Virus record (IMG/VR): IMGVR_UViG_3300029827_000001
Span: 1 to 64,000 of that record
Length of the DNA stretch: 64,000 nt
Origin: a virus
Direction: 5' to 3' (one strand)
This document shows positions 9,295 through 61,636 of the stretch, piece after piece. The notes below the pieces were generated by a model. The model searched no databases, was not told the DNA's origin, and saw nothing but the letters and a program-made list of their open reading frames with translations. Both the position numbers and the translations under genes were made by a program. How positions within the stretch are numbered: position 1 is the stretch's first letter; each line of letters begins with the position of its first letter.

Positions 9295-9310
9295 TAATTA
9301 ATATATATAG
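9295..9310 (-). promoter_or_regulatory. putative early phage promoter CTATATATATTAATTA
   Basis: One of five copies, each just upstream of a leftward gene cluster. Confidence 0.7.
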
Positions 9311-46577: not shown

Positions 46578-47494
46578 TGCAGGAAGCAGTCTTAATGGGT
46601 CCCTTTATTGGGGAGATGGGTTGGGAATTATTAAGGTTTGCTCCAATGCTCCCGTATATGAAGCTAAAGAAATATAAGAATCGAAATATAAAGTATATAA
46701 TCTTTACGAGGCCAGAGAGGTTTGACCTATATGGTGCTTGGGCAGATACTCTAGTGCCTCTTCGTATTGAAAATGACTATTACAAATATAAACCTGAATG
46801 CTTTAGAGCAATTGGTTTTTCAGTCGAGGACTATAAAAAATTAGCCCAACAGTTTAAACTACAATTTTCCAAAAGGTTTAAAATTGTTGAGCATATATTT
46901 CCCAACATAACTAAACCATCATACTTAAGAAAAAATCAATATCCACAAAAGTTAATGGTTTATGATTTTCGACCAAGAAAGTCTAACCGACTTTTGGTTA
47001 GTAAATATGTTCCTAATGATAAACCGGTTATAGTTCTTGGTCCTAGATTTAGGAAAGGGTTTAAAAGAAATTGGCCACATTGGCAGAAATTTTACAATAT
47101 GATTTCTATTAATAGCTGGTTAATGAATAATTTTCACTTTGTTATTTGTGGTAGAGAACCTGAGTATATCCCGGATGAGAAAGAAAGGTTTTTTGATATT
47201 AATAGTATTGAAGAAAGTGAAAGTAGTTCTCTAATTGGACTTACTCTTGAGACAATAAGGCGTTCTATATTAGTAGTTGGATCTCAATCTGCTATACCAA
47301 ATATTGGAATGATTTTAAAAGTTGAAGTACTACAGTGGGGCAATGAACCAAAAGAACATACGAAAACTTATAACGTATTTAATACGAAAGTACACTTCAT
47401 TACTGATAGGCAGTATCAAACAAAACCAGAAAAAGTTATCTCAGAAATGACGAAAATTCTAAAAACTAAACTTCATGAAGGAGTAAAGAAATGA
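46577..47494 (+). CDS. putative GT-B fold glycosyltransferase
   Basis: GPFIGEMGWE, RNWPHW, VGSQSAIP. Confidence 0.6.
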   Translation: MQEAVLMGPFIGEMGWELLRFAPMLPYMKLKKYKNRNIKYIIFTRPERFDLYGAWADTLVPLRIENDYYKYKPECFRAIGFSVEDYKKLAQQFKLQFSKRFKIVEHIFPNITKPSYLRKNQYPQKLMVYDFRPRKSNRLLVSKYVPNDKPVIVLGPRFRKGFKRNWPHWQKFYNMISINSWLMNNFHFVICGREPEYIPDEKERFFDINSIEESESSSLIGLTLETIRRSILVVGSQSAIPNIGMILKVEVLQWGNEPKEHTKTYNVFNTKVHFITDRQYQTKPEKVISEMTKILKTKLHEGVKK

Positions 47495-47773: not shown

Positions 47774-48526
47774 ATGGCTCTTCCTATTGACTCAGTCTAC
47801 GCGGGTACTAATGTTAAAATAGCGGACGTACAAGCAAAATATAATGACTGCCTTACTTTATTTCCTGATATTCAAAATCAACTTAATATAGTCTCAGCAA
47901 ATGTAGCATCTATGTATAATGACTCAGTTGATGCAATTAGTACAGAGATAAGTGGTTTACTTGAACAGTATGGTATAAACTGTGCATCTAGAGCATACTT
48001 TGGTCAAGATGCTGATGACTTGATAACTAATAAGTATGATATATATAAGAAGATGCAGAGTGGAGATATATATGGGCCAATTACTAATACATTAGATAGT
48101 ATGCTTGATGAAACTGGTCCCTTTGACTGTAGTATACCAGCAATTGAAGCTTGGGTCAGGAGTCTATTTGATGGACTATCATTTGAGACAGATAGTCGTG
48201 TGGACCTTATGAATACAGTAAAAGATTTTATAAATAGTGCACAAGAATTTTTTGACGATGTAAATCGTGCCTTAGGATTCTTAGGAGAGTGGTTGGGGTG
48301 TGGTGAGCAAATGTTTGGCAACTTTGTTGATCTTGGGCCAGCCATGGAGACATATAATACATATGCTAATGAAACTTTTAGTGCAGTTCAAGATGCAAAA
48401 TCAATAACAGACAATCCAAAAGAAATTTATGACCGGTCAGTAGCACAAACGAAAGAAACATTAGGTTTACAAACAAGAATTGATGATCTTAAAAGTGAGG
48501 CAGATTCAATATTGACTATATTCTAG
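47774..48526 (+). CDS. hypothetical acidic helical protein (probable virion)
   Basis: Precedes PAAR gene. Confidence 0.6.
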   Translation: MALPIDSVYAGTNVKIADVQAKYNDCLTLFPDIQNQLNIVSANVASMYNDSVDAISTEISGLLEQYGINCASRAYFGQDADDLITNKYDIYKKMQSGDIYGPITNTLDSMLDETGPFDCSIPAIEAWVRSLFDGLSFETDSRVDLMNTVKDFINSAQEFFDDVNRALGFLGEWLGCGEQMFGNFVDLGPAMETYNTYANETFSAVQDAKSITDNPKEIYDRSVAQTKETLGLQTRIDDLKSEADSILTIF

Positions 48527-48534
48527 GAGGTAAA

Positions 48535-48837
48535 ATGCCAGCAACTGCATATCTTACGTCCATTGGAGTTGGAACTTGTTGTTGTCATAATGATCCAAAG
48601 TGCAGATCCAAAACTGGGATGATTGTGACTGGTTCTCCAAATAAAGTTACAAATGGGTTACCAAACGCTAGACTCGGTGATTTATTCTTGGGAACTTGTG
48701 GTCATATATCTGTAATGGTAGGAGGATCACCAAATACTTTTGTGAACGGACTACCTCAGTGTAGAACTGGTGATCCTTTTTCAGGATGTATAGTTGGAGT
48801 AATTGTGACTGGTTCTCCAAACTCTATCACTAATTAG
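48535..48837 (+). CDS. PAAR-like spike tip protein
   Basis: TGSPN..NGLPNARLGD, GSPNTFVNGLPQCRTGD, Cys/His. Confidence 0.85.
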   Translation: MPATAYLTSIGVGTCCCHNDPKCRSKTGMIVTGSPNKVTNGLPNARLGDLFLGTCGHISVMVGGSPNTFVNGLPQCRTGDPFSGCIVGVIVTGSPNSITN

Positions 48838-48888: not shown

Positions 48889-49260
48889 TTATGAAGATGC
48901 AGCCTCTTTTGGCCGCTTCTCTTCGAACATAATGACTTTACTCTCATCCACTTTCGGTCTGGTCTTAAATTTCCCTTCTCTTATATCTTTCTTATGCTGC
49001 TTCCACATCTCAATCTTTTCAACTCCGGTATCTAGAAGATCAGCAAAGAAGACTTGAGAATACGAGGATCCACACTGAGGACAAGACAAGTAAGATAGAG
49101 AATTATATGCACATCTACAATTCTCACACATCTTGGCGTTTGTCCAATTAGACACTGCTTCGATGGGAATTTCTCTCTTCTTGACATTGTCTTCATGGAT
49201 AAGAGAATAAACAACTACACCTATCAGTACCCCAACTACTAATACAATTAACGTCTGCAT
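48889..49260 (-). CDS. membrane-anchored Zn-ribbon protein
   Basis: N-terminal TM, CENC...CPQC. Confidence 0.65.
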   Translation of the reverse strand: MQTLIVLVVGVLIGVVVYSLIHEDNVKKREIPIEAVSNWTNAKMCENCRCAYNSLSYLSCPQCGSSYSQVFFADLLDTGVEKIEMWKQHKKDIREGKFKTRPKVDESKVIMFEEKRPKEAASS

Positions 49261-49276
49261 ATCTATCAGCCCCTTT

Positions 49277-49438
49277 CTATTTATTTATACATTTTGGACA
49301 GAGACCAGTTTTCAAGAATTTCTTTATTTCATCCTCATTTACAAACTGGTCTATTGACACATTTGAAAGACACATAGGACAACGTCCTTGCTTGTCTGAT
49401 TGAGATATACTCCTTTTTTGTTTGTTCTTGTCGTTCAT
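49277..49438 (-). CDS. 53-aa Zn-finger protein (not in ORF track)
   Basis: MNDKNK...CPMC...GLCPKC, GGGGAG RBS. Confidence 0.6.
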   Translation of the reverse strand: MNDKNKQKRSISQSDKQGRCPMCLSNVSIDQFVNEDEIKKFLKTGLCPKCINK

Positions 49439-49884
49439 ATTGGATACTCCCCTAAGTGTTCAAGTACCACTTGAGGATTTCCCTTCTTATTCTTCTTTTT
49501 TAGTTCTTTTAGTTCTTCCTCAAGGGGTTCAATCAACCTCTTTCTGACGTGGTTTGTCATCTCATTGAATTGGTCATAGAGATGAGGAGTTCGAGCGATT
49601 ATTTCTTCTTGAAAAGCTTCAACCATCTCTAGCTGGTTTTTCATGTGGTTTATTCTTTTAGACATCTCGGTAGACCCTTTGATGACTTCAATATTTGACT
49701 TTAGTGAGACGTTGGAGCTTTCGAGTACCAGCCTCATCTTTTTATGCATATTGGTCAGTGCAAGTATTAATATGATTAGTAATGTGAAAGAGACAACATT
49801 AAGCACTAGTTGTGTAAGCATAAAACGATGGACTGCTTTTGGTCCTGCTTCTGTAAATTTCTTATACCGTAACATCGTTAACAT
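49435..49884 (-). CDS. membrane-anchored coiled-coil protein
   Basis: TM plus coiled coil. Confidence 0.65.
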   Translation of the reverse strand: MLTMLRYKKFTEAGPKAVHRFMLTQLVLNVVSFTLLIILILALTNMHKKMRLVLESSNVSLKSNIEVIKGSTEMSKRINHMKNQLEMVEAFQEEIIARTPHLYDQFNEMTNHVRKRLIEPLEEELKELKKKNKKGNPQVVLEHLGEYPI

Positions 49885-49897
49885 AGGTGCTCTCCTT

Positions 49898-50209
49898 TCA
49901 CCTAGCTTGCTGTTTTAGTTCTTGAATCTCCTGGTTGCTTAGAGCACGTATTTGTATTACAGTAGCTGATGGTATTGCCAACCACAGACTTCTATGGAAA
50001 TAGTCTCCACCTGGATCCTCCAAGTAGCAATAGACAAAGGTCTCTTCCGGAGAGACTTTAAAATACTGAGTGTTGATGGATTGTATTGCCACCATAAACT
50101 CAGGGTCTCCAGCTCTTCTGTCTTGATTTGGCAACCAGTACTTATAGGTAATATTAAACATAAGTACCAGCATGATGATAAAACCTAAGAATTTCTTCCC
50201 CATTAGCAT
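49898..50209 (-). CDS. membrane-anchored hypothetical protein
   Basis: N-terminal TM, AAGGAGG RBS. Confidence 0.65.
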   Translation of the reverse strand: MLMGKKFLGFIIMLVLMFNITYKYWLPNQDRRAGDPEFMVAIQSINTQYFKVSPEETFVYCYLEDPGGDYFHRSLWLAIPSATVIQIRALSNQEIQELKQQAR

Positions 50210-50218
50210 CCTCCTTAT

Positions 50219-50377
50219 TTATTCATATTTTGGTAGATTTTCTTTCGCATACTCTTTTGCTCTCTCAAAAAGGTCGTCAATGGATTCATGCTCCATTATA
50301 TCGAAGGTTTCCATATGAGTTGCTTTGGTGGTATCAATTATTACTTCAATTCTAAATTGTCTTACTATTTCTGGCAT
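50219..50377 (-). CDS. 52-aa hypothetical protein (not in ORF track)
   Basis: MPEIVRQFRIEV..., AAGGAG RBS, fills gap. Confidence 0.55.
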   Translation of the reverse strand: MPEIVRQFRIEVIIDTTKATHMETFDIMEHESIDDLFERAKEYAKENLPKYE

Positions 50378-50379
50378 CT

Positions 50380-50874
50380 CTATATCTCCTTCCTTCGGAG
50401 TAATAGGAAGACAAAGTCAGTAGTTATTCTAACCTCACTTTTGTTATAACGCCAACCTCCTATCCCTACTCCATATCCTGAAGCTTCATTGACTGTTTCA
50501 CTTCCTAGGAAAAGTACCTGATGAGCACCGTCATGACTTGCAAACTTTAGAATCCGATCCATTACGTCGTTGATGCTACATTTCTTTGGACCCGACATTC
50601 TTATAGTCAAAAATCCAATTGGTTCTAAACCTTCTGGCATTTCTTTGACCAGTTCGCTCTTAGATGTTGGTTCATACTTTCCGCTTAGATCATGTACCAC
50701 AATCAGCGCACAGATCTCATCAGGTTTAACTCCAGATTTCTCAAGTCTTTTAAAAACTTCGAATACTCCTTCTGGTGTACTTTCAAGAACTTCTGGAGAT
50801 TTCTGAGTTTCAGCAAAACAAGTTGTCGAAAACAGGACTAAAACTATCAGTATGACTTGCTTAGAAAAGTTCAT
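50380..50874 (-). CDS. secreted hypothetical protein
   Basis: Signal peptide. Confidence 0.65.
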   Translation of the reverse strand: MNFSKQVILIVLVLFSTTCFAETQKSPEVLESTPEGVFEVFKRLEKSGVKPDEICALIVVHDLSGKYEPTSKSELVKEMPEGLEPIGFLTIRMSGPKKCSINDVMDRILKFASHDGAHQVLFLGSETVNEASGYGVGIGGWRYNKSEVRITTDFVFLLLRRKEI

Positions 50875-50897
50875 AATTTCTTTTCCTCCTTAAAGAA

Positions 50898-51173
50898 CTA
50901 TTTTGATAGGAACTTTCCTTCTCTTGGTAACCTGGTCTGTTCTATAGGGAGGATTGCTATCCCCACTGCATGACCGTATGTTTTACTATTTACAATCCAG
51001 ATAACCACACCCGCTTGTTGATCTATAATTCGGGTTACTATAGATTCATCATCTTTCAAATCGACGTAAAAATCTGAGATGGTTGTTGGGAGTGATGTTG
51101 TTGGTTCAGCATAACATAAACCAGTAGAAAGAAGTAAAACTACTATTAATAAAACTAAAACCTTCGTTTTCAT
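50898..51173 (-). CDS. secreted hypothetical protein
   Basis: Signal peptide, ATG 51173 with GGAGG. Confidence 0.65.
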   Translation of the reverse strand: MKTKVLVLLIVVLLLSTGLCYAEPTTSLPTTISDFYVDLKDDESIVTRIIDQQAGVVIWIVNSKTYGHAVGIAILPIEQTRLPREGKFLSK

Positions 51174-51233
51174 AGTACCTCCTCTATCTTTGACATTCAA
51201 AATTTTAATATAAACCTATCGACTTGTTATTGG

Positions 51234-51249
51234 TAATTAATATATATAG
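51234..51249 (-). promoter_or_regulatory. putative early phage promoter CTATATATATTAATTA
   Basis: Exact copy of repeated motif. Confidence 0.7.
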
Positions 51250-51271
51250 AGTAACTTATATTATCTAAAAG

Positions 51272-51283
51272 AACAAATTAATA
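51272..51283 (+). promoter_or_regulatory. putative late-type promoter AACA-N6-TA
   Basis: AACA-AATTAA-TA upstream of glycosyltransferase operon. Confidence 0.55.
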
Positions 51284-51304
51284 ATTAAAAATGAAAGGAA
51301 TAAT

Positions 51305-52300
51305 ATGAGAATTCTTTTTAACTCAGTGAATTGTGGGTTAGGTAATAATGGCGGGTCTTCAACTATAGTACATTCTGCTAATACCCTTATTGAACTGGGG
51401 CATGACGTTAAAATTATTGATAGCATGAGAAATCAGTTTACTTGGTTTGAGCTAAAGGCAAAACATATAGTCTTAAAAGATCTAAATGATAGTCCAGACG
51501 CAGATGTTGTAATTGCAACTGGTTATAAAACTGTTAGCTCTACCCTTAGGTTGCCAAAAAGGTGTGGGATTAAAGCACATTGGATAAGAGCATGGGAACA
51601 CTGGCAAATGTCAGATGATCAGATTTTTACTAGAGTACTAAACGTTCCAACTATAAAGTTAGTTAATAGTATATGCCTACAAAGGAAACTAGAACAATAT
51701 CAAATTTCTTCCCATATAGTTCGTCCTGGATATGATTTTGGAAAGTTGTATCCTCTAAACTTAAGAAATTATAATAGGGGAGAATTTGTAGTAGGAGCTT
51801 TATACCGAGAAGGAGTTCATGGACAAAGAAAAAGAACCAAATGGTCTCTTGATATTATAAAAGAACTAAAATCAAGAAAAAGAATAAAATTCTGGATGTT
51901 TGGGTCTGAACCAAAACCAAATTTTTCTTTCATTGATAACTATCTGAAATCTCCATCATTCCAGGAGAAGAATGATTTTTATAATAGAGTACATTTATGG
52001 ATTGCTCCTACAATGTCTGAAGGTTTACACTTACCCCCTGCTGAAGCAATGATGACTGAATGTCCGGTTGTTGGTACCAATGCTCAAATGAGTGGTATGC
52101 AAGACTACTTAATTGATAGAGAAACTGGTAGAGTTTCTGGAGATAGTATAAGTTCCTTTAGAGAAACTATCAGAGAAGTTCTTGATGATCCTAAAAGCAT
52201 GGAACAGATGGGAAAAAAAGCTAGGCTAAAAATAGCTGATCTTGGAGATAGAAAAACTAATATGTATCTAATGGTAAACTATTTGAAGAGTTTAATATGA
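51305..52300 (+). CDS. glycosyltransferase family 4
   Basis: GG..TI..AN.L..LGHDV, SEGLHLPPAEAMMTECPVV. Confidence 0.85.
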   Translation: MRILFNSVNCGLGNNGGSSTIVHSANTLIELGHDVKIIDSMRNQFTWFELKAKHIVLKDLNDSPDADVVIATGYKTVSSTLRLPKRCGIKAHWIRAWEHWQMSDDQIFTRVLNVPTIKLVNSICLQRKLEQYQISSHIVRPGYDFGKLYPLNLRNYNRGEFVVGALYREGVHGQRKRTKWSLDIIKELKSRKRIKFWMFGSEPKPNFSFIDNYLKSPSFQEKNDFYNRVHLWIAPTMSEGLHLPPAEAMMTECPVVGTNAQMSGMQDYLIDRETGRVSGDSISSFRETIREVLDDPKSMEQMGKKARLKIADLGDRKTNMYLMVNYLKSLI

Positions 52301-53130
52301 GCGTAAAAATATATAAAGTCAAAGAGATTTTAGATAGCTTAGAGGAATGTATAGTTGAGAGAAAACCTTTCTCTCTAATAAGATTTGGAGATGGAGGGAT
52401 CAAATTGATCCACTCATATTTCTATAGAGATTATAATCAGTTGCTTAAGATATGTAAAAAAGAAGGTCTACCGAATGATAAAGTTGAACATATAATTAGA
52501 CTTTGGGCAAGATATGCAAACGAAGCTGATTTTATTGACTCTCCTCAAGTATATTTCTCTAATAAATTCTGGGGTAAATACAAAAAAGGGTTTATCCACG
52601 CTTCTGATAAAACTTTAATTAGAATGAAAATGTGGAAGGATTTATATCAAAGGGCAGGTATTGATATTCATAAGGTCAAATTCTGTAACCCAGAAGTAAA
52701 TTACTTGATGTGTATAACTATACCTTCTAAAAGAACTATTTTTGAGTTAATGAAAGGTAGAAAAATATGTTGTATAACGTCTTGTCCTGAAGCGATTAAT
52801 AATTTATCAAAGTATAATATTGACGTTGTCAAGATTGTTGGGCACTATGAAAATCAGTTTGAAAATTCTTTCTCAGATGTAGTTAGTGTTATTGAAGGAA
52901 GAGCACTGTTATATGACTTTTGGATGGTTGGTGCTGGAGAACTTGGGAGAATATACTCAGGTTTGATAAAAGCTAGAGGTGGTCGAACTATTGATATGGG
53001 ATTTGTTATTGACTATTGGAAGAATCATGAGATACCAGCACGTCTTGGTGAATTTGTATCTTCTCATCCACTAGATCCTCTGAAATTTGTCTTAACTAAA
53101 TATGGAAATCCCTATGCAGACCATATCTAA
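52297..53130 (+). CDS. GT-D fold-like glycosyltransferase
   Basis: SLIRFGDG, VGAGELG, TIDMG. Confidence 0.7.
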   Translation: MSVKIYKVKEILDSLEECIVERKPFSLIRFGDGGIKLIHSYFYRDYNQLLKICKKEGLPNDKVEHIIRLWARYANEADFIDSPQVYFSNKFWGKYKKGFIHASDKTLIRMKMWKDLYQRAGIDIHKVKFCNPEVNYLMCITIPSKRTIFELMKGRKICCITSCPEAINNLSKYNIDVVKIVGHYENQFENSFSDVVSVIEGRALLYDFWMVGAGELGRIYSGLIKARGGRTIDMGFVIDYWKNHEIPARLGEFVSSHPLDPLKFVLTKYGNPYADHI

Positions 53131-53857
53131 GATTGATATTACAATGACAAGTGTTCTTCGACCTGGAATAGTTAATGAAACGCTTGAGTCATTTTGTAAT
53201 AATCTCTTTACCGAAAAGAGCAGGTATCGCCTAGTAATCAATATTGATCCAGTTGGTGAGAAAGTAAAAGCAAAAGAAGTAGTAAAAGTTTGCCAAAAAT
53301 ACTTTGATGATGTTGTTTATAATATTCCAAACAAACCATCTTTTCCAGCAGCTGTAATATGGACATGGAAAAATTCCAGGTCAGATTGGGTTTTTCACCT
53401 TGAAGATGATTGGAAGATAAATAGTAAAGTTGACATAAATCATATGATCAGCATACTTAATAAGTATAAAGATGTTGCTTGTCTCAGAATGTCAAAACAT
53501 CCTCTTCCTAGGAGAAAGATAATTAAGCTATTTAGATCGAATTATAGTTTTAAACCAGAAGGTTTTTTTATTGGTCAAGATAGAAAAGCTCAGTTTGGAC
53601 TGAATCCTGTACTTATAAGAGGAAAATTCATTAAACGAGCATTACCATATATGGTTACTACTAAGAACCCTGAGAAGCAGTTTAGATATGGCAATGAACT
53701 TCTAAGAGACTTTATTATGAAATGGAGATATGCTATTTATGGAAGACCAGGTCAAGGTGCTCTAGTGGTTGATAACGGATCAAAATGGAGGAAAGATTTT
53801 GGATTTGATAAACCAGACCCAGAGGAGGGTCCGTTTTTAGTATGGAAAAAGAAATAA
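53102..53857 (+). CDS. glycosyltransferase family 2-like
   Basis: TSVLRP, FHLEDDW, LNP. Confidence 0.75.
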   Translation: MEIPMQTISKIDITMTSVLRPGIVNETLESFCNNLFTEKSRYRLVINIDPVGEKVKAKEVVKVCQKYFDDVVYNIPNKPSFPAAVIWTWKNSRSDWVFHLEDDWKINSKVDINHMISILNKYKDVACLRMSKHPLPRRKIIKLFRSNYSFKPEGFFIGQDRKAQFGLNPVLIRGKFIKRALPYMVTTKNPEKQFRYGNELLRDFIMKWRYAIYGRPGQGALVVDNGSKWRKDFGFDKPDPEEGPFLVWKKK

Positions 53858-54609
53858 AATTATTCTGGAGTCGTCAAGATAATAATTTTGGAGATAAATT
53901 ATCTCCTTATATTGTTGGAAAAATATCTAAAAGAAAAGTAAAATATTGTAATTCTCCAACTCCAACTAGAACAGTATATTTGGCTGTTGGAAGTATTTTA
54001 CATCATTTAGGTTCTTCTATGAAATGGTGTGAAATTTGGGGTTCTGGTTTAATGGATCAGAATCATAAATTGTTATCTCCCAAGAAGATTCATGCAGTTA
54101 GAGGTCCACTAACTAGACAATTTCTAATAAGACAGAGTATAAATTGCCCAGACATTTATGGAGATCCAGCTCTTTTATTACCTCGGTTATTTAATCCTGA
54201 CATTGAGAAAAAATATAAAGTTGGTATTGTTCCACACTTCGTCGATCAAAAAGATAACTGGATTGGTATTCAATGTTTAAGAAAAGATGTTTTGTTTATA
54301 GATGTTTATGAACCTGTTGAGAAAGTTATTACTAACATTTTATCTTGTCAAGCAATCCTTTCTAGTTCTCTACATGGTTTAATTGTTGCAGATGCATATA
54401 GAGTTCCATCCTTATGGATTGAACTATCTGGTAAAGTAAAAGGAAAAGGTTTTAAGTTTAGAGATTATCTATTATCTGTTGGAGTTGAACCTTATAAACC
54501 ATATACTCTTGGTCTTCCTTATAGGAGTATTGATGCCCCTTTGAGGTTTGTAAAGAAATATGATCTAAAGATTGATCTGGATAAGCTTTTAGAGAGTTGT
54601 CCATTCTGA
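53842..54609 (+). CDS. polysaccharide pyruvyltransferase
   Basis: NFGDKL, VGSIL, WGSG, AVRGPLT, GDPALL, SSSLHGLIVADAY, FKFRDY. Confidence 0.9.
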   Translation: MEKEIKLFWSRQDNNFGDKLSPYIVGKISKRKVKYCNSPTPTRTVYLAVGSILHHLGSSMKWCEIWGSGLMDQNHKLLSPKKIHAVRGPLTRQFLIRQSINCPDIYGDPALLLPRLFNPDIEKKYKVGIVPHFVDQKDNWIGIQCLRKDVLFIDVYEPVEKVITNILSCQAILSSSLHGLIVADAYRVPSLWIELSGKVKGKGFKFRDYLLSVGVEPYKPYTLGLPYRSIDAPLRFVKKYDLKIDLDKLLESCPF

Positions 54610-54621
54610 GGAGTTACAAAA

Positions 54622-55902
54622 ATGAAAATTACTTTGATATATCTACCTCATCCGTATTTAAAGCAACCAGATGCTCAGGCTCCTTTGGGTATTATGTATC
54701 TGGCATCAGTCATAGAAGAAAATGAATTTGAAGTTGAAATAAAAAATTATTCTTCTTACTTAACATATGAAGCGATTGCTGACCTTAATGAATCTGACTT
54801 TTATGGAATAACAGTAACCAGTTTAGAACTTCCACAAGCAAATAGATTTGCATACCTTATAAAGGAAAAGTTTCCAGAAGCAATTATTGGTTTAGGTGGT
54901 CCCGGAACTTATACAGAAGAGTTTGTTGACTGGTCAGTTGTGGATACTATTTGCAAGGGAGAAGGTGAGATTACTTTTCTTAATATGTTAGAAGATGTAA
55001 GGAATAAGAAACTAAAGAAAATCTACAACGGTCAAATAGTTGATAATCTTGATACAATTCCATTTCCATCAAGAGATTTACTTAAGGATAAGCAAGGAGG
55101 AAATATCTTTGCGTATAACAAAACATATAAAGAAGGAGGTAGTACCGTTCTCTTAACATCTCGTGGATGTCCTTTTAAATGTACTTTCTGCTCAGCTCCC
55201 AAGTTTACTTATAGTAAGAAGGTTCGTCATAGAAGTTCCAAGAATGTTAAACAAGAAATAGAGCATGTCATCCAGAAGTATGGCATAAGGCAATTCAGAA
55301 TTTCAGATGATATGTTTACTGCTAATAGAGATAGAGTCCTAGATTTATGTGATCACTTGAGTTCCCTTGATATAGTATGGAGAATTTCGACTAGAGTTAA
55401 ACCAATTGATTATGAGATGTATAAAATTATGTTTGAATCTGGTTGTCGAGAAGTTTCTTTTGGAATTGAAAGTTTTGACGACGATGTATTAAAAGTTTTA
55501 AGAAAGGGAACTACCTCTAAAGATAATGCTAGAGCATTAGAGATAGCTCATCAAGTTGGAATGAAAAGCAGAGTTTTATTTATGATAAGAACTCCAGGTC
55601 AAACTAAGGAGACAGTTAAAAAGAATATTGAGTGGCTACAGAAAGTTCCATACGATATTATTTGTGTAACTAGTTTTGTTCCCTTACCTGGTTCTGAGAT
55701 ATGGGAAAAACCAGATGAGTTTGGAGTAGAAATTTTATCTAGAAATTTAGATGACTATAATTTTTACTTCTTCGGTTCTTCAGGAGAGAATGAACTAAAA
55801 AATGTAATTAAGATTAAAAACAGAAGTTTGGAAGAGTTTAATGAAGAAACGCAGTATTTTAAGGATTGGATTAAGGCAACTGGTAAATTGAATATTGGGT
55901 AA
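54622..55902 (+). CDS. cobalamin-binding radical SAM enzyme
   Basis: PLGIMYLAS, GGP, GEGE, TSRGCPFKCTFC, FGIES. Confidence 0.9.
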   Translation: MKITLIYLPHPYLKQPDAQAPLGIMYLASVIEENEFEVEIKNYSSYLTYEAIADLNESDFYGITVTSLELPQANRFAYLIKEKFPEAIIGLGGPGTYTEEFVDWSVVDTICKGEGEITFLNMLEDVRNKKLKKIYNGQIVDNLDTIPFPSRDLLKDKQGGNIFAYNKTYKEGGSTVLLTSRGCPFKCTFCSAPKFTYSKKVRHRSSKNVKQEIEHVIQKYGIRQFRISDDMFTANRDRVLDLCDHLSSLDIVWRISTRVKPIDYEMYKIMFESGCREVSFGIESFDDDVLKVLRKGTTSKDNARALEIAHQVGMKSRVLFMIRTPGQTKETVKKNIEWLQKVPYDIICVTSFVPLPGSEIWEKPDEFGVEILSRNLDDYNFYFFGSSGENELKNVIKIKNRSLEEFNEETQYFKDWIKATGKLNIG

Positions 55903-55907
55903 AAAGC

Positions 55908-56603
55908 ATGAGCATACTGAATGAATCTCAAGAGCAACGTGATATAGAACTATCTAAGATAACCAAAATCTCTCTGAAAAAGATTAAATCAATTATACCG
56001 AAAAGTCCTGACTCAATAAGAATTTATGATGGGCAGTCTTCTATTAAAAGTGAAAATGATATTCTATCATTGTATAAAGAGTATAAGTGTTTAGATATTA
56101 TTGCGTACTTAAAAACTTTAATGGTTACTAGTATTGAATCTAGACATCGTGAACTATACTCTCTTATTAGAAAAACTAGTAGAAAAGTGTGCCTAGATTT
56201 TGGAAGTGGAGTTGGAACTCATGCAATTGCTCTATTTGAGAATTCCAATGAAGTTTCTATACTCGATGTCCCAGGGCCTCTTCTTAATTTTACTTTAGAT
56301 CGAGTTAGGTTAAGAGGATTTAATCCAAAGGTTTACTACCATGATTCTCAACTGCCCGATTCATTCTTTGATTTAGTTATTTGTACCGATGTATTAGAAC
56401 ACGTATATGATCCAGTACGAGAGTTAGCAAGAATAACCAATTGCTTAAAGAGATCTGGTATATTACATCTACAAGTCAGTTCAAAGATTAAACCTTCTTC
56501 TGGTCATTTTGAATCTTCAATTAGAAAGTGGAAAATTGAGGGACCTAAGTTTCTTGGTGGTAACTATAAGAAAATTGGTGAAACTATATATAGGAAATTA
56601 TGA
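55908..56603 (+). CDS. class I SAM-dependent methyltransferase
   Basis: LDFGSGVG, FDLVICTDVLEHV. Confidence 0.85.
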   Translation: MSILNESQEQRDIELSKITKISLKKIKSIIPKSPDSIRIYDGQSSIKSENDILSLYKEYKCLDIIAYLKTLMVTSIESRHRELYSLIRKTSRKVCLDFGSGVGTHAIALFENSNEVSILDVPGPLLNFTLDRVRLRGFNPKVYYHDSQLPDSFFDLVICTDVLEHVYDPVRELARITNCLKRSGILHLQVSSKIKPSSGHFESSIRKWKIEGPKFLGGNYKKIGETIYRKL

Positions 56604-57085
56604 TGATTACTGCTAAACTTACTCAGGGGAAAAATTGCTCCATATCTAAAAACGCGCTTATAGGATTTAAGGAACACGGTGGAGAAATTATTCTTGGTAA
56701 CAATGTTGTAATCCGGCATGGAGTGATTCTAAGAACTTGTACTGGTGTAATAAAGATTGGCAATAATACTATTATTAACTATCATTGTATTATGCATGGA
56801 CTTGGTGGAATCACAATTGGTAATGATGTTGTGTTTAGTCCATATGTTCAAATATATGCTCAAAACCATGGAATCTTACCAGATAAGTTAATACGAGAAC
56901 AAAAGAATACTGGTCAGGGAGTCATAATAGGAAATGATGTTTGGATAGGTGCAGGAGCAATTATTACAGATGGAGTAATGGTTCAAACTGGATCTATAAT
57001 AGGTGCAGGTTCAATTGTAACAAAAAATATTGGAAGTTATCAGATATGGGCAGGAAATCCTGCTAGAAAAATTGGAGATAGATAA
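56600..57085 (+). CDS. hexapeptide-repeat acyltransferase (sugar O-acetyltransferase-like)
   Basis: IGNDVWIGAGA, GAGSIVTK, AGNPARKI. Confidence 0.9.
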   Translation: MMITAKLTQGKNCSISKNALIGFKEHGGEIILGNNVVIRHGVILRTCTGVIKIGNNTIINYHCIMHGLGGITIGNDVVFSPYVQIYAQNHGILPDKLIREQKNTGQGVIIGNDVWIGAGAIITDGVMVQTGSIIGAGSIVTKNIGSYQIWAGNPARKIGDR

Positions 57086-57673
57086 TTGAAGAAGTTAAAG
57101 AATATACCAGTTTTGGTAAAGTGGATTCATTGGAGAATGTCGAATTTAGTGAGTGAGTATGAACCTACTAGCATTATTGATATGGGTGGGGTTGGAAGAA
57201 TAAAGAGTTTTGTAAACTGTAAAGTTGTAGATGCAAATCTTAAAGCGGGAATTGATGCAACTAAATTACCATTTAAAGATAACTCATTCGATATATCCTT
57301 ATCAATTAATACTTTAGAGCATATTAAGAATAAAAAGAAATTTCTCTTAGAAGCAATTCGAGTAGCAAAAGTTGCTTCGATACATTGGTTTCCTTATGGA
57401 GCAGGTGCTAAACTAACTGAGAAGTTAAAAAAAGAGCTTGGCCACAAGCACCCCTGTAGTATCCCAGAATATCAGGATATTCTCCCATTTTTAACTGACT
57501 CAAAGACTAGTTGTAAATTTAAAGAATCTATAAGTTGTAAAGATCATTTACTGCTGTTAGCATCTATAAATGAAAAAATGAATAACAGTAAAACATTTGA
57601 GTTTATTGAGAAATACGGAAACGTACCTTATAGTTTTATCTTGTCAGCAGAATATCGAAGAGGTGAAGAATGA
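57086..57673 (+). CDS. class I SAM-dependent methyltransferase
   Basis: IDMGG, DATKLPFKDNSFD, TLEHI. Confidence 0.75.
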   Translation: MKKLKNIPVLVKWIHWRMSNLVSEYEPTSIIDMGGVGRIKSFVNCKVVDANLKAGIDATKLPFKDNSFDISLSINTLEHIKNKKKFLLEAIRVAKVASIHWFPYGAGAKLTEKLKKELGHKHPCSIPEYQDILPFLTDSKTSCKFKESISCKDHLLLLASINEKMNNSKTFEFIEKYGNVPYSFILSAEYRRGEE

Positions 57674-58563
57674 AGATTCTCTATTTTTCGGACGGATATG
57701 CTTGGCATGTTATGGGAACCAAACGCTCGATTTATGAAGAAGTTCAGAAACGGGGTCATGAAGTTATCTATCTTGATAAGGGTTTAGTTTGGAATATACC
57801 ACAACTTATATTTGATCATAATCCGGATCAGATTTGGTTAGTTCATACTGGATTATCTTTCTCGGGACAAGATAGAAAGAAAATAAAAGTACCAATTGTT
57901 GGGTTCGGTTTTAGTGATCCAGTGTATAGAATTATAGACTATAGTATCTTTGATATTTATGTAACTAACCATTTTGAGACATATAAGAAGGTTTCAAAAA
58001 AGATGAAATGTATTTATAACCCAACTGCGTGTGATCTTAAATTTCACCAGAAACTTAGCATTCCAAAAACGACAGATCTCTTAATGATTGGAACTGGAAC
58101 TCATGCTAGGTTTAAGAGTAAGAAAATGAGAATAACATATGTTAATAAACTTAGAAAAGATACAAGTTGGATTGTCACAGCGTATGGAAAAAATTGGCCT
58201 AAGCATATTAGAAATCATGGTCATATTGAAGGTCAAGAATTTCTAGTTGCTATAAATAGCGCAAGATTAGGTTTAGATATCCAAGATGAAGTATCTCCTT
58301 TAGCTCATAGGATGTTTGAATTTGGAGCGTGTGGAGTTCCAGTTATAACCAAACACAGACCAGAAGTCTTAATACATCTTGAAGATGGTAAAGAAATTCT
58401 AACCTATCATAACTATAATGACCTTTTGGAGAAAGTAAATCATTATCTTAATAACCAATCTGAGTTAGAACAAATAAGTACAAATGTATTGGAAAGGTGT
58501 GTGAGAGACCATAATATAAGTAATAGGGTTAATCACATATTGGCAGAACTTCAACGAGGGTAA
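57670..58563 (+). CDS. CgeB-like glycosyltransferase
   Basis: RMFEFGACG, EDGKEI..Y, DHNISNR. Confidence 0.8.
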   Translation: MKILYFSDGYAWHVMGTKRSIYEEVQKRGHEVIYLDKGLVWNIPQLIFDHNPDQIWLVHTGLSFSGQDRKKIKVPIVGFGFSDPVYRIIDYSIFDIYVTNHFETYKKVSKKMKCIYNPTACDLKFHQKLSIPKTTDLLMIGTGTHARFKSKKMRITYVNKLRKDTSWIVTAYGKNWPKHIRNHGHIEGQEFLVAINSARLGLDIQDEVSPLAHRMFEFGACGVPVITKHRPEVLIHLEDGKEILTYHNYNDLLEKVNHYLNNQSELEQISTNVLERCVRDHNISNRVNHILAELQRG

Positions 58564-58566
58564 TAA

Positions 58567-59598
58567 ATGACTAAGGACTTTTGGTTATTTAGAACAAACC
58601 TGAGGCCATTAGAGTATTACCATCAGTATAAGAGCTTAGAAAACTTTGAAAAGAATTGTCATGACTTTTATCTACTAATGGGAATATGGTTTCTTAGAAA
58701 CCACATATACGATAACTTTATTGTCTGGCGACTAAACCCGAAAAGACAGAAATTAGCAGATATTACTTTTAATATAGATGGTAAGAAATTTATCCAGAGA
58801 TGGGTAGATAACTTTAATGAAGTATTCGATTACATCCCACCAAAAATTTCCTTCTTTCGAGGAGGATTCCCTGAGTACTGTAAACTTACAAAAATCAATC
58901 CTGACCATTTTGGGAAGAAACTATACCTCGGTGCTGGCAAAAGAGTCTATCCTCAGCATGGTGGTAACTATGATTTAATACTTTTAGAAAGTGAAAAAGA
59001 TAATCAAAACGAATATAAAACTGCACCTTTCTATAAAACTGCTAATAATGAGATATTTAAACCACTTGGAATGCCAAAAAAATATAACCTATGCTGGATT
59101 TGTAATTTTGCTCAAATAAGGCACAAAGGTCAAGAATTTTTTATAAGTGAGATTTCTAAATCTATTCACTTAAAAGGATTATCTATTGTTCACTTGGGGA
59201 ATAAACCAGAAGATGGGCAAAGAATGTGTAAGAAATATGGAGTTAATAATATTGACTTTGTTGGGTGGGTTGAAAGACCAATTCTAAATGAGTATCTAAA
59301 TTCTAGTTTTTTTGGGGTAGTAACATCAAATGAGCAAGATGGTTGTCCTAGAGTTATAACAGAAATAATGATGTCTGGAGTACCTCTACTATTAAGAAAA
59401 AGAACTAGACTCCTTGACTTCTATAAAAGGTCTGGAGTAATAATATTTGATGATAAAAGTTTAGAAATGAAGATACAGCACGCGATGCATAAGTATCAAG
59501 ATTATAATAATCAAGCGAAAAAAAATGTTGAAGAAAAACTAATCATGGATAAAGTCTGTAATATGAACTTAAATCTATGGAACAACTCAAAAAAATGA
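58567..59598 (+). CDS. GT-B glycosyltransferase (family 1/4-like)
   Basis: HKGQ, DGCPRVITEIMMSGVP. Confidence 0.75.
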   Translation: MTKDFWLFRTNLRPLEYYHQYKSLENFEKNCHDFYLLMGIWFLRNHIYDNFIVWRLNPKRQKLADITFNIDGKKFIQRWVDNFNEVFDYIPPKISFFRGGFPEYCKLTKINPDHFGKKLYLGAGKRVYPQHGGNYDLILLESEKDNQNEYKTAPFYKTANNEIFKPLGMPKKYNLCWICNFAQIRHKGQEFFISEISKSIHLKGLSIVHLGNKPEDGQRMCKKYGVNNIDFVGWVERPILNEYLNSSFFGVVTSNEQDGCPRVITEIMMSGVPLLLRKRTRLLDFYKRSGVIIFDDKSLEMKIQHAMHKYQDYNNQAKKNVEEKLIMDKVCNMNLNLWNNSKK

Positions 59599-59616
59599 GG
59601 GGACCCGACTCCCCTC
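59589..59616 (-). terminator. intrinsic terminator
   Basis: GAGGGGA/TCCCCTC stem plus T-run on minus strand, at convergent junction. Confidence 0.7.
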
Positions 59617-59642: not shown

Positions 59643-60674
59643 TTAGAAAACCCAGTGATAAACCTTTTTGGCTTTTTCGCTTACCCAGTTATAGGCACCC
59701 GAGAAATAGTTACTTTTCTTTTCCTCTTTGGCCTTGACAGTTCCTTCTGCTTCAGCAGCTCTCTGGATGGCGTCGATGGGCTCATTGTCAATCTTGACCT
59801 TGAAACTGTCTCCCTTTATCACTCCATTTAAGTTCTCAGAGTGAATGACAATCTTTTGCTCATCGGTCTTCCAGAGGATTGAGGCAAAGCGAACAGATTC
59901 CTGGCGGATTGTCAAGTCCCCCTGAACCCAATTTTTGATTGGATCAGGCCATGTTCGCCTATCTGGGTTTGACATAAACGCAAAGCATTTCTTGAGACCC
60001 ATTGATCTCATTTTGTCAATGATAATCTCAAGATCTGTTTCATCCTGACCTTGGAAGTCGGTCCAGAAGACTCTGCCACCTAATGAGTTATAGGCTCTCC
60101 CAACTAGTAAAGAATCGTAACCCCAACTCTTCACCTTATGGGACATATCCTCAATTGCCTTTGATCTCACTTGATCTTTGTAGACGGTTGTAGGAAATAT
60201 CATAGTGAAACCATCTGAATCAGTGATAGTTTCAACGCCGATCAACTCGGGGTTTTTGACGTCTTTGATTCTTTTTGATAAAACGTCAACCAACTGCTTT
60301 TCAAGGTGTTGCTGCTCTGCTGCGTAGTTGATTGCTTTCTTGATTGCTTCAGGTCCAGTCTCATGGAAAATGTATACTCCTGCTATGGTGAAGATCAAAG
60401 CAAGAGAAACTATTGAGTACATAAGGACCCTAATTACATAAGCAAACCCACCTTGAGCTTGTTCCCTCGGTTTTCTGAACAACCGAAAGCTTTTCGGTTT
60501 GTCGACCAACTCTGAAAGTTCCCGACTGACTCTTGATAGATTTTCCTTGATCACTAGTAGTCTCTCCTTGTCCTCGGTGGTTGCGATTCCCTTATTGACT
60601 CTCTCTTCTAATTCTGCGCTTTGACGGAGTAAGGAGACTCGCTCCTCACGAAGTAATTTTTCTTTCTCCTTCAT
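59643..60674 (-). CDS. membrane protein with N-terminal coiled coil
   Basis: One TM segment, AAGGAGG RBS. Confidence 0.7.
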   Translation of the reverse strand: MKEKEKLLREERVSLLRQSAELEERVNKGIATTEDKERLLVIKENLSRVSRELSELVDKPKSFRLFRKPREQAQGGFAYVIRVLMYSIVSLALIFTIAGVYIFHETGPEAIKKAINYAAEQQHLEKQLVDVLSKRIKDVKNPELIGVETITDSDGFTMIFPTTVYKDQVRSKAIEDMSHKVKSWGYDSLLVGRAYNSLGGRVFWTDFQGQDETDLEIIIDKMRSMGLKKCFAFMSNPDRRTWPDPIKNWVQGDLTIRQESVRFASILWKTDEQKIVIHSENLNGVIKGDSFKVKIDNEPIDAIQRAAEAEGTVKAKEEKKSNYFSGAYNWVSEKAKKVYHWVF

Positions 60675-60954: not shown

Positions 60955-61036
60955 CTTTGGGACAGTAACCAAAGAACTATATGAGACATAAATTTTGGAT
61001 ATGAGAACATATTATAAAAATGAAAGGAGTAGTTTT

Positions 61037-61636
61037 ATGGTAAATTTAGGTCCATTAAAAGAAGATGTGCGAGATCTATTAATTCTTTATAGCGGCGGAG
61101 CAGATAGTCGGTTGATGCTGGAAATCGCTTTTAGAACAAATAGAAAGCCTTATTGTCTACTAATTGATTATGGACAATTACATAAAGAAGAACTAGATTT
61201 TGCTGTTAATCAACTTGACAAACTTAAAGTTCCTTGGCAATTAGTCTCAGTATCAGGTTTACTATATGATAGTGCTTTAACTGGAAGTGGTGAGCAGGGC
61301 ACGTTTGGAAGTAAAGATGAAATTAGTATTTTTCATGTTCCAGGTAGAAATACAATGTTTGCAGGCATTGCACTAGGAGTTGCTGAGAACAAAAGGATCA
61401 GTGAGATTTGGCATGGGGCTGATTTTTCAGATCGTTTAAATCTATTTCCAGATTGTTATCAAGAGTATGCAGTTAAGTTGAATGAATTATTTGCAATTGC
61501 TGGCCCAAGTCCAATTAAATATTTAGTTCCTTTAGCTGGTATGACAAAAGAGATGATACTTGATTTACTAAAAGCATATGGGGTTAATTTAGCTACTATT
61601 TTTTCAGGATATGGAGAGATTCAAGCAGAGTTATAA
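61037..61636 (+). CDS. queC: QueC-like PP-loop protein lacking the C-terminal Zn-binding motif
   Basis: YSGGADS, DYGQ, VPGRN, PDC, MTK. Ends TIFSGYGEIQAEL. Start ATG 61037 with AAGGAG. Confidence 0.75.
   Translation: MVNLGPLKEDVRDLLILYSGGADSRLMLEIAFRTNRKPYCLLIDYGQLHKEELDFAVNQLDKLKVPWQLVSVSGLLYDSALTGSGEQGTFGSKDEISIFHVPGRNTMFAGIALGVAENKRISEIWHGADFSDRLNLFPDCYQEYAVKLNELFAIAGPSPIKYLVPLAGMTKEMILDLLKAYGVNLATIFSGYGEIQAEL

Follow-up and report, generated by a model that had tools for sequence, protein, structure and literature searches.

Within a 64,000-nucleotide (nt) stretch of viral DNA (hereafter the window), which is the first 64 kb of the 86,762-bp IMG/VR record IMGVR_UViG_3300029827_000001 (hereafter G000; CheckV completeness 28%), ten co-directional open reading frames (ORF1–ORF10; positions 51305–59598, plus strand) encode glycosyltransferases and glycan-tailoring enzymes. 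Our results reveal that this operon is the downstream half of a larger conserved locus that includes a module at 44495–47494, that the conserved core of the locus (i.e. the GT4, GT-D and ORF3 genes) was found almost only in phage contigs, and that the operon centre is swap-prone and includes an accessory acetyltransferase. We tentatively read the locus as a system for cytoplasmic O-glycosylation of a protein, probably a virion protein, and put the chance of this a little short of even.

A protein acceptor is favoured because (i) all 13 proteins of the locus are soluble and no lipid-carrier genes accompany them in the operon, its flanks or the scanned ORFs of a complete relative (hereafter G001); (ii) ORF2 has a GT-D fold; (iii) the tailoring module (ORF4–ORF9) has flagellar contexts in bacteria and, in the phage-like contig L178, a tail-protein context; and (iv) distant loci that carry ORF3 homologues also carry NeuB, CMP-type cytidylyltransferase and MptE/Maf-like genes, which is a flagellin-type content. 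Given the phage setting, a virion protein would therefore be the natural target. Three versions of the operon centre in close relatives are as expected for an exposed structure under diversifying selection. An earlier, sequence-only reading of this DNA had placed the glycan on a cytoplasmic acceptor, most plausibly a virion protein; the acceptor indeed appears to be cytoplasmic or cytoplasm-facing, as the enzymes are soluble, and a protein is its best-supported identity in view of the ORF2 fold, the flagellar-island homologues and the tail gene in another phage.

In the mechanism that we propose, an oligosaccharide would be assembled and edited directly on the protein in the cytoplasm of the infected cell. 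The core enzymes would start and extend the chain from host-made nucleotide sugars, and the CgeB-like transferase (ORF9) would add a sugar that is then pyruvylated (ORF4) and C-methylated or rearranged (ORF5, a B12-binding radical S-adenosylmethionine (SAM) enzyme), as well as O- or N-methylated (ORF6 and ORF8) and acetylated (ORF7). ORF10 would cap or extend the chain, and swapping of the centre would change the exposed epitope. We infer these steps of the chemistry, including the sugar added, the radical SAM reaction and the priming enzyme, from gene content.

Operon, larger locus and close relatives

The contiguous ten-gene operon of the sequence-only reading is borne out to the nucleotide, with junctions that range from a 29-nt overlap to a 12-nt gap, and nine of its ten domain calls are confirmed directly by Pfam. 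ORF1 (51305–52300, 331 aa) is a GT4-type GT-B glycosyltransferase of the conserved core (Glyco_trans_1_4, 3e-12, and Glycos_transf_1); it is 78% identical in G001 and present in 19 of 79 viral loci with ORF3. The other two core genes are ORF2 (52297–53130, 277 aa), which encodes a GT-D fold glycosyltransferase-like protein (PF22882, 39 bits against a cut-off of 27), and ORF3 (53102–53857, 251 aa), a predicted GT-A fold glycosyltransferase of a Pfam-less family. ORF4 (53842–54609, 255 aa) is polysaccharide pyruvyltransferase-like (PS_pyruv_trans, PF04230; 2.9e-11, 44.3 bits against 25.3); its match is above the gathering score and spans only profile positions 118–277 of 280, and the protein is 78% identical in G001. 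The B12-binding radical SAM enzyme ORF5 (54622–55902, 426 aa; Radical_SAM 7e-26, 91.8 bits; B12-binding 34.8 bits against 32.1) is followed by a class I SAM methyltransferase, ORF6 (MT1; 55908–56603, 231 aa; Methyltransf_11 2.7e-10; 53% identical in G001), and by the accessory gene ORF7 (56600–57085, 161 aa), which encodes a hexapeptide-repeat O-acetyltransferase-like protein (Pfam Hexapep 1.4e-12) with NCBIfam matches to maltose O-acetyltransferase and a WcaF-like family, both below cut-off. ORF8 (MT2; 57086–57673, 195 aa) is a second SAM methyltransferase (Methyltransf_11 6e-9, profile positions 50–89 only) with a TTG start; its G001 orthologue is 60% identical and begins with ATG. ORF9 (57670–58563, 297 aa) is a CgeB-like glycosyltransferase (Glyco_trans_1_2 1.3e-23), and the GT4-type glycosyltransferase ORF10 (58567–59598, 343 aa; Glyco_trans_1_4 3e-10) forms the conserved 3' end of the locus, is 81% identical in G001 and has family members in 30 of 78 ORF3 neighbourhood sets.

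Neither the operon nor the 28 flanking ORFs scanned (36837–64000) yielded a flippase, a polymerase, a ligase, a phosphoglycosyl transferase or a sugar-nucleotide gene; the sequence-only reading had likewise seen no flippase, polymerase or sugar-nucleotide synthesis gene, and this holds for the wider region. Nor did a gene for priming transfer, flipping, polymerisation or ligation turn up in G001, of which we scanned 244 of the 262 ORFs of at least 110 aa. All 13 locus proteins are free of hydrophobic stretches of transmembrane grade. PADLOC returned generic radical SAM and methyltransferase domain matches only.

The operon is syntenic in three related viral records (G001, G002 and G003) at 71–75% nucleotide identity, and we count these as one relative because their scores are identical. 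G001 is complete (277,131 bp, terminal repeats, CheckV 100%); nine of the ten operon proteins are found there at 53–81% identity, with gene order and flanking genes unchanged. Flanks and order are also conserved in contig L139, so the synteny that the sequence-only reading had proposed to look for in related phage contigs is present. A misassembly, or a bacterial island falsely joined to phage DNA, is vanishingly improbable. Part of the operon (ORF4–ORF9) does have 36–67% identical homologues in bacterial metagenome-assembled genomes (MAGs), as such a join might predict, but the same flanks and order recur in G001, G002, G003 and L139, and phage-specific upstream motifs stand ahead of the operon. 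Furthermore, in each of four Logan runs (all from one study, which is possibly the source of this DNA) a single contig spans 46000–64000 without a joint and with at most four differences. The guanine + cytosine (GC) content of the operon (0.33–0.35) lies inside the range of the window (0.30–0.39), and GC and skew are continuous. The sequence-only reading had named a host-derived misassembly with a coverage or composition break as what would overturn it; as far as sequence data show, misassembly is already refuted by the synteny with G001, the spanning contigs and the continuous GC.

Among 50,697 deposited phage records, megablast of the operon gave no match, and the five tblastn hits for the radical SAM protein were weak (22–27% identity, all short of 80% query coverage), with no hit for the CgeB-like protein; neither search of these records turned up a cultured relative. 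Single-protein scans were blank for ORF5, ORF9 and a neighbouring 343-aa protein in viral contigs, and for ORF5 in genome contigs, and alignment queries were needed for these proteins.

The locus boundaries in the sequence-only reading were too narrow, as a three-gene module at 44495–47494 (plus strand) is conserved together with the operon in contigs of eight independent relatives. This module comprises (i) a heptosyltransferase-like glycosyltransferase of family GT9 (44495–45754, 419 aa; Pfam Glyco_transf_9 4.5e-9, 36.4 bits against a cut-off of 22; NCBIfam heptosyltransferase II 4.7e-10, below cut-off); (ii) a conserved protein (45714–46577, 287 aa), which is GT-A-like by its DxD-like motif (LDNDV) only and has no Pfam or NCBIfam hit; and (iii) a conserved, probably GT9-like protein (46571–47494, 307 aa), which has no Pfam hit and for which the nearest ESM Atlas viral clusters, automatically named GT9 family (score 0.99; one with PF01075 on 14% of its members), offer a lead only. 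A search of the Protein Data Bank (PDB) for protein-heptosyltransferase kin of the GT9 protein returned only weak matches to heptosyltransferases of lipopolysaccharide (LPS) synthesis, the best with an E-value of 0.016. Of the 79 viral loci, 10 have the GT9 gene together with the GT4/GT-D/ORF3 core (tblastn), and so has the MAG contig L116; the 287-aa gene is present in 9 of 79 loci, always adjoining the GT9 gene, and the GT9-like gene in 10 of 79, with a duplication in L041, L043 and L044. In total, eight glycosyltransferase-type genes are distributed over 44495–47494 and 51305–59598. Taken over the whole locus, the conserved core comprises the GT9, GT-A-like and GT9-like genes of this module as well as GT4, GT-D and ORF3.

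In the closest lineages the gene order is NUDIX, volactin-like actin, GT9, a 277-aa DxD-like protein, a 299-aa protein with the GT9-like lead, GT4, GT-D, ORF3, a variable cassette and often a second GT4. Independent relatives with this order, some of which are without single genes, are G001 (plus near-identical records), L041, L043, L044, L045, L047, L049, L055 and L116. The volactin-like actin gene of the window (42958–44046; PF25216 1.7e-70) is part of the conserved gene string in eight neighbourhood sets, the window included. The upstream module directly abuts GT4 in most relatives, whereas a block separates the two in G000 and G001. The first part of this block (47774–48837) encodes a 250-aa protein and a 100-aa PAAR-motif protein (Pfam 2.2e-9), so that a spike-tip structural gene lies inside the glycan locus in G000, G001 and L139. 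Its second part, on the minus strand (48889–51200), holds five small ORFs (100–164 aa) with hydrophobic or signal-like N-termini; it looks like an insertion of membrane or secreted proteins, because the two modules abut directly in most relatives.

Three close relatives represent three versions of the operon centre between conserved flanks. In G000 the centre consists of the radical SAM, MT1, acetyltransferase, MT2 and CgeB-like genes. In G001 the acetyltransferase ORF7 has no tblastn hit anywhere in the genome (the junction was aligned), and the centre genes are only 53–67% identical, while identity in the five flank genes is 73–81% in four and 68% in ORF3. The centre of L139 contains an 84% identical radical SAM gene, behind which come a methyltransferase of 35% identity, an unrelated ORF of 206 aa and one more CgeB-like gene. 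Cassettes of the wider clade include hexapeptide acyltransferases, PIG-L deacetylases, methyltransferases, CgeB-like proteins, epimerases and UDP-GlcNAc 2-epimerase. Across 78 neighbourhood sets of ORF3 (the window and 77 loci), nearly every gene that recurs beside ORF3 is a glycan gene, e.g. GT4 (30 sets), GT2 (21), methyltransferase (21), hexapeptide acyltransferase (20), NeuB (18), epimerase/dehydratase (17), CMP-type cytidylyltransferase (14) and MptE/Maf-like (10); a tail-protein family is present in 8.

Core folds and the tailoring module

An AlphaFold2 model of ORF2, folded with seven relatives, has a predicted local distance difference test score (pLDDT) of 91.7, and only three PDB chains match it at E<0.01, all of them GT-D structures of the DUF1792 family (4phr, 4pfx and 5v4a; template modelling (TM) score 0.50–0.55 over 261–275 columns). 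These solved members are streptococcal enzymes titled DUF1792 / GalT1, which we take to extend O-glycans on serine-rich adhesins. A single-sequence PDB search with ORF2 returned dGT1 at an E-value of 0.006, and a search with an eight-sequence GT-D profile gave no match at E<=0.1. Within the ORF2 family, D32 and G33 are invariant in eight relatives and the consensus at position 34 is G. The model thus points to a GT-D fold that lacks the acid of the D-x-E motif.

ORF3 matches no Pfam, NCBIfam or PHROG family at the thresholds used; the protein collection contains 201 homologues, and the 120 of them that were listed all lack a Pfam domain and a functional name. An alignment of 35 homologues has invariant residues at R20, D49, H99, E101-D102-D103 and N189-R195. 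Its AlphaFold2 model (pLDDT 93.9) best matches TarP, SpsA and GnT-I in the PDB (TM 0.51–0.60, E 3e-10 to 2e-9) and GT2-like proteins among viral models, consistent with a predicted GT-A fold enzyme that has a DxD-type acidic motif. The label 'GT2-like' in the sequence-only reading is therefore apt for the fold, in view of the TarP, SpsA and GnT-I matches, but not for the sequence, which belongs to no GT2 family. An alignment-based scan of viral contigs recovered the 79 ORF3 loci used throughout, and a pattern-limited scan of 185,579 species genomes recovered two, both MAG contigs, one of which (L116) has the full synteny of the phage locus. ORF3 is the founder of a Pfam-less family that is seen almost only in phage contigs.

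ORF5 has an N-terminal B12-binding domain and a CxxxCxxC motif (C183, C187 and C190) that is invariant in 19 sequences; by motif and domains it is assigned to the class B (cobalamin-dependent) radical SAM enzymes. Among named B12 radical SAM equivalogs (HpnJ, BchE, PhpK etc.), its best NCBIfam match is HpnJ (2e-42, 145.5 bits against a cut-off of 577.6), and all 25 listed of the 35 families matched score below cut-off. The ORF5 subfamily comprises 926 homologues at E<=1e-20, of which the best 120 are 56–91% identical; a few are labelled as MAG proteins of Pirellulaceae, Planctomycetota, Deltaproteobacteria and Desulfobacteraceae.

An alignment scan of genome contigs with ORF5 found 11 loci, four of which have homologues of ORF4, 6, 7, 8 and 9 alongside at 36–67% identity; bacterial MAGs carry, next to the radical SAM gene, genes that are 45–48% identical to ORF9. 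In a Phycisphaerae MAG, a gene for a 1153-aa fusion (CgeB-like, hexapeptide and two GT2 domains) comes after those for the radical SAM enzyme and a methyltransferase, and the set directly adjoins FliD and a gene of the FHIPEP family. In a Deltaproteobacteria MAG, the tailoring set ends a same-strand island of ~48 kb (on a 51-kb contig) that starts at a flagellin gene and includes GT2-TPR proteins, two GT9 genes, CgeB-like/DUF3880 genes, a 603-aa MptE/Maf-like protein, a second B12 radical SAM gene, a pyruvyltransferase and a carbamoyltransferase. A Pirellulaceae MAG has the set beside GT2 and GT9 genes, with no flagellar gene within 20 kb. Hence, of the three close cellular contexts that have enough flank, two are flagellar, a small sample of two organisms. 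Among 401 sampled genomes of the deltaproteobacterial phylum, the only one with a close ORF5 homologue (E<=1e-90) is the Deltaproteobacteria MAG itself.

In metagenomes, 80 ORF5 loci contain MT1 (23), CgeB-like (16), pyruvyltransferase (16), MT2 (15) and acetyltransferase (15) genes. Nine long loci that we scanned look phage-like, with genes for uracil-DNA glycosylase (UDG), RNA ligase, DNA methylases, ThyX and a 5'-3' exonuclease. In the phage-like contig L178 the module directly follows the gene of a 1058-aa tail protein (Phage-tail_3, Rcc01698_C). The ORF4–ORF9 set thus recurs in many phage contigs and in a few bacterial MAGs.

Acceptor of the glycan

Several observations weigh against glycosylation of a virion protein. 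The operon does not lie in a structural operon, with QueC, small membrane proteins and a PAAR protein as neighbours and a family B DNA polymerase (PolB) further on. The isoelectric point (pI) exceeds 9 in 11 of the 13 locus enzymes, compared with 13 of the 60 remaining G000 proteins that are 150 aa or longer (Fisher p = 3.6e-5), and in all 35 close ORF3 relatives examined; across the phage loci, transferase families that touch the acceptor are basic and sugar-nucleotide enzymes are not, and the homologues in bacterial flagellar islands are mostly of pI 5.6–6.7. This basicity hints at an acceptor or scaffold that is anionic, for instance DNA or membrane. There is no Maf/MptE-like (PF01973) gene among the ten operon proteins or the flanks. 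The flagellar adjacency rests on two organisms, and flagellar genes occur in 2 of the 80 metagenome ORF5 loci, both from the Phycisphaerae organism, although many of these loci are only a few kb long. In addition, ORF2 has RFGDGG where dGT1 has RFGDGE, so that the acidic residue of the D-x-E motif, which reportedly binds metal according to the dGT1 structure paper, is missing.

Host envelope remodelling, which we judge unlikely, would have the soluble transferases extend a lipid-linked acceptor of the host (lipid A-core or an undecaprenyl-linked oligosaccharide) on the cytoplasmic side of the membrane, followed by export through host MsbA, Wzx or WaaL; the altered surface would block superinfection or stop progeny from re-adsorbing. 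Core-type LPS assembly requires no flippase or polymerase of its own, and peripheral membrane glycosyltransferases are usually basic, as the transferases of the locus are. Two heptosyltransferase-like GT9 genes lie in the conserved core, G001 encodes a PfkB kinase and a cytidylyltransferase-like protein that represent the two domain types of a putative ADP-heptose synthesis pathway, and OmpA-like, pilin-like and PilZ genes are also present in G001. Remodelling of the host surface is, moreover, the published reading of glycosyltransferase and rfaE islands in pelagimyophages (PMC7029224). However, the structure matches of the GT9 protein are weak (best PDB E 0.016), there is no lipid-carrier gene among the scanned G001 ORFs, although the host could supply such genes, and the GT-D, CgeB-like and Maf-associated contexts point to protein acceptors. 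The ORF3 family is present in only 2 of 185,579 species genomes by the pattern-limited scan, both MAG contigs and one (L116) with phage synteny; ORF3 therefore does not look like a borrowed host LPS gene. Re-glycosylation of a host protein, e.g. flagellin or pilin, by a flagellin-type enzyme kit during infection that alters motility or excludes flagellotropic competitors has a slimmer chance than any other acceptor considered here. The closest cellular contexts of ORF4–ORF9 are flagellar and G001 encodes PilZ-domain and pilin-like proteins, as this would predict, but the operon has no Maf-like gene, no flagellar gene was found among the scanned ORFs of G000 or G001, and the conserved core (GT4, GT-D and ORF3) was found almost only in phage contigs.

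A distinctly unlikely alternative, which the sequence-only reading had also raised, is DNA hypermodification, in which some or all of the transferases would decorate a modified base with a glycan as protection against host nucleases; the base could be a hydroxymethyl- or hydroxy-pyrimidine that the thymidylate synthase (TS) homologue helps to make. The uniformly basic transferases agree with this, as does a DNA-metabolism neighbourhood in which QueC lies 1.4 kb downstream, PolB, QueE-like, TS-like and DnaB genes lie within 25 kb, and both upstream motifs are common to the operon, PolB, QueC and QueE. Known phage GT-A/GT-B enzymes acting on 5-hydroxymethylcytosine (5hmC) add mono- to trisaccharides, including heptose, and have TarP as their top PDB match, as ORF3 does (bioRxiv 10.1101/2023.12.21.572611), and polyarabinosylated 5-hydroxycytosine depends on TS homologues (PMC13326640). 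On the other hand, phage DNA-modification pathways usually cluster (same preprint), whereas none of the 79 viral loci has a TS-like gene in the 10 kb on either side of ORF3 and only 4 have QueC there, and there is no Pfam dioxygenase or TGT family among the scanned G001 ORFs. Compared with the motif text of that preprint only, which gives R...DDD...EDY/F for DNA GT-A enzymes, ORF3 has R20 and E-D-D; no third motif (EDY/F) was found in it, and NPEKQFR is invariant in its place. Because the Asn characteristic of dUMP-type enzymes is present in the TS-like protein, 5hmC is unlikely. Eight transferases, a pyruvate ketal and the nonulosonic-acid genes of relatives also far exceed any DNA glycan described. 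The fullest form of this alternative, i.e. a branched, pyruvylated, C-/O-methylated and acetylated oligosaccharide that as many as eight transferases would assemble on a modified base in the DNA of the phage itself, has a slim chance. If true, such a DNA-borne tailored oligosaccharide would be by far the most elaborate DNA modification known, and the opponents in the arms race behind the cassette swapping would be host nucleases, not receptors or antibodies.

Should a virion protein be the acceptor after all, as we tentatively favour, huge sediment phages would wear flagellin-like, negatively charged glycans, which would bear on adsorption, sediment aggregation and host recognition; DNA or LPS as the acceptor would be more surprising still. 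A radical SAM reaction on a sugar is of enzymological interest under any reading, and the natural cassette swaps of close relatives indicate which genes act together.

Related systems, upstream motifs and genomic setting

Phage-encoded glycan clusters are common in large uncultured phages, and to our knowledge almost none of these has a known product or acceptor. ORF3, as a compact and highly conserved GT-A family without a Pfam model, offers a handle on such clusters, and ORF4–ORF9 constitute a tailoring module of six genes, centred on an uncharacterised subfamily of B12 radical SAM enzymes, that moves between many phage lineages and bacterial flagellar glycosylation islands. We found no description of the ORF3 family, the ORF4–ORF9 module or its link to flagellar islands in the open-access literature (bioRxiv supplements excluded).

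The bacterial flagellin glycosylation islands resemble the locus in that they hold clustered ORF4–ORF9 homologues at 36–67% identity (one beside FliD, one with flagellin, Maf-like and GT9 genes) and in that the enzymes of both systems are soluble and cytoplasmic, with no lipid-carrier machinery in either. By contrast, the phage operon has no Maf-like or nonulosonic-acid synthesis genes, its core was found almost only in phage contigs, and its enzymes are basic where the bacterial ones are mostly acidic.

In Mimivirus and other Megavirinae, fibril clusters (e.g. L136–L143 with R132) encode glycosyltransferases, a pyruvyltransferase, a methyltransferase and an acetyltransferase that decorate the particle surface, with clade-specific gene content (PMC10117803). 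The locus shares with them virus-encoded glycosyltransferases, pyruvyltransferase, methyltransferase and acetyltransferase, a likeness by gene content alone, and we count this fibril decoration in support of a virion-protein acceptor. These are, however, giant viruses of eukaryotes with their own nucleotide-sugar pathways and chemically solved glycans, whereas the phage operon, known here from its genes alone, has a B12 radical SAM gene and no sugar-nucleotide gene. The mycobacteriophages Che8, Corndog and Myrna glycosylate their own capsid and tail tube proteins (Freeman et al. 2023, cited in PMC12619734), using phage glycosyltransferases, some with methyl- or acetyltransferases, that act on virion proteins in the cytoplasm as proposed here. 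Their genes lie in or beside the structural operon, and the phages are siphophages and myophages of actinobacteria with 50–160 kb genomes. The present locus, on the other hand, is larger, includes GT-D, GT9, pyruvyltransferase and B12 radical SAM genes, and lies between a block with an actin-like gene and QueC.

Pelagimyophages and cyanomyophages, which are large T4-like marine myophages, have hypervariable islands rich in glycosyltransferase and ADP-heptose (rfaE) genes, with an inferred function (PMC7029224). Unlike the present locus, these islands are surrounded by tail-fibre genes, have been interpreted as altering the O-chain of the host and have GT8 as the most represented family; the ORF3 family, GT-D and a B12 radical SAM module are not described for them in the available part of that paper. 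Phage DNA-hypermodification clusters are alike in their GT-A/GT-B enzymes, which are related to teichoic-acid and LPS enzymes, have TarP as top PDB match and use heptose. They differ in being defined by an adjoining 5mYOX or TS homologue and in making mono- to trisaccharides, compared with a larger tailoring set and no TS-like gene within 10 kb in any of the 79 loci here. The statement in the sequence-only reading that such elaborate tailoring is rarely described in phages is thus only partly true, since glycosyltransferase islands (PMC7029224) and virion glycosylation in mycobacteriophages (cited in PMC12619734) are in print.

Two motifs precede ORF1. The first, TTAATATATATAG, is promoter-like (51237–51249, plus strand) and lies 56 nt ahead of the start codon and 22 nt ahead of the second motif, inside an 18-nt block that is identical between G000 and G001; it has four matches in the window compared with 0.04 in shuffles. 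QueC, PolB and a QueE-like gene have it upstream too, as do the terminase, baseplate and fibre operons of G001. The second, GAACAAATTAATAA (51271–51284, plus strand), lies 21–34 nt before the start codon; its degenerate form GAACAWAWWWAWAA has seven matches in the window compared with 0.19 in shuffles. A looser form of GAACAAATTAATAA lies 15–70 nt upstream of 34 of 394 called genes in G001 (~9.6 expected), including giant fibre-like ORFs, the baseplate operon and terminase, as well as PolB, QueC, QueE, UvsX-like and ligase genes. The AACA-N6-TA pattern with which the sequence-only reading headed the operon is indeed present at 51272–51283, within this real 14-nt motif, but as written it is not enriched (42 in the window versus 61 ± 8 in shuffles). 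The 'late-type' label given to it is unsupported, because the containing motif also heads genes for DNA polymerase, QueC and QueE, and for the UvsX-like protein and ligase. A scan for the sigma-70 consensus gave 54 sites, compared with 55.6 expected, and is thus uninformative. Phage-specific promoters are plausible, because G001 encodes multisubunit RNA polymerase beta/beta'-like genes; there are two sets of these (81080–87010 and 113878–117972), as in phiKZ-like jumbo phages. A perfect copy of TTAATATATATAG lies at 9298–9310 (plus strand) of the window, where all called genes are on the minus strand, and is kept at the same place in G001 (135731); it may be an orphan promoter, or may serve an antisense or small transcript.

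The four public runs that contain the stretch are all labelled marine sediment metagenome. The window carries T4-type genes (UvsX-like recombinase, clamp loader, Dda-like helicase, ribonucleotide reductase and baseplate hub), and the remaining 23 kb of G000 encode a T4-like portal, a GH108 lysin and the family B polymerase (69940–73197 of G000, past the window end), which has an N-terminal domain of the UDG superfamily (Pfam UDG 1.6e-14). The same UDG fusion, but on a family A polymerase, recurs in five ORF3-bearing loci.

Genes of 7-deazaguanine synthesis are present in this phage clade, i.e. QueC (60995–61636 of the window), a QueE-like radical SAM gene (73863–74534 of G000), and FolE2 and QueD/PTPS homologues in G001 (72008–72859 and 101878–102297); together these would make up a preQ0-type pathway. 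Pfam recognises no TGT/DpdA-like protein among the scanned ORFs of G001. A gene convergent to the operon (59643–60674) encodes a 343-aa protein without a Pfam, NCBIfam or PDB match; we considered it as a DpdA-type transglycosylase and set this aside, as those searches were blank and the ESM Atlas gave nothing usable (poor model). Between it and the operon, a scan for terminator-like sites found a GC-rich hairpin (59597–59616) with a T-run on the minus strand only. The divergent TS homologue lies 15.8 kb downstream of the operon (75351–76214 of G000; TIGR03283 2.3e-25, below cut-off). Its sequence (PPCLRH ... FPANLAA) retains the surroundings of the catalytic Cys as well as the Asn that marks dUMP-type enzymes, and it may be either a genuine TS or a hydroxymethylase of dUMP.

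G001 contains a second glycan-related region at 245–277 kb, with the PfkB kinase, the cytidylyltransferase-like protein, three sulfotransferases, cupins, a pectate-lyase-like protein, a SPASM radical SAM protein, GT1 and GT9-like genes and O-methyltransferases. Across the terminal repeat, this region adjoins giant fibre-like ORFs of 1287–2781 aa.

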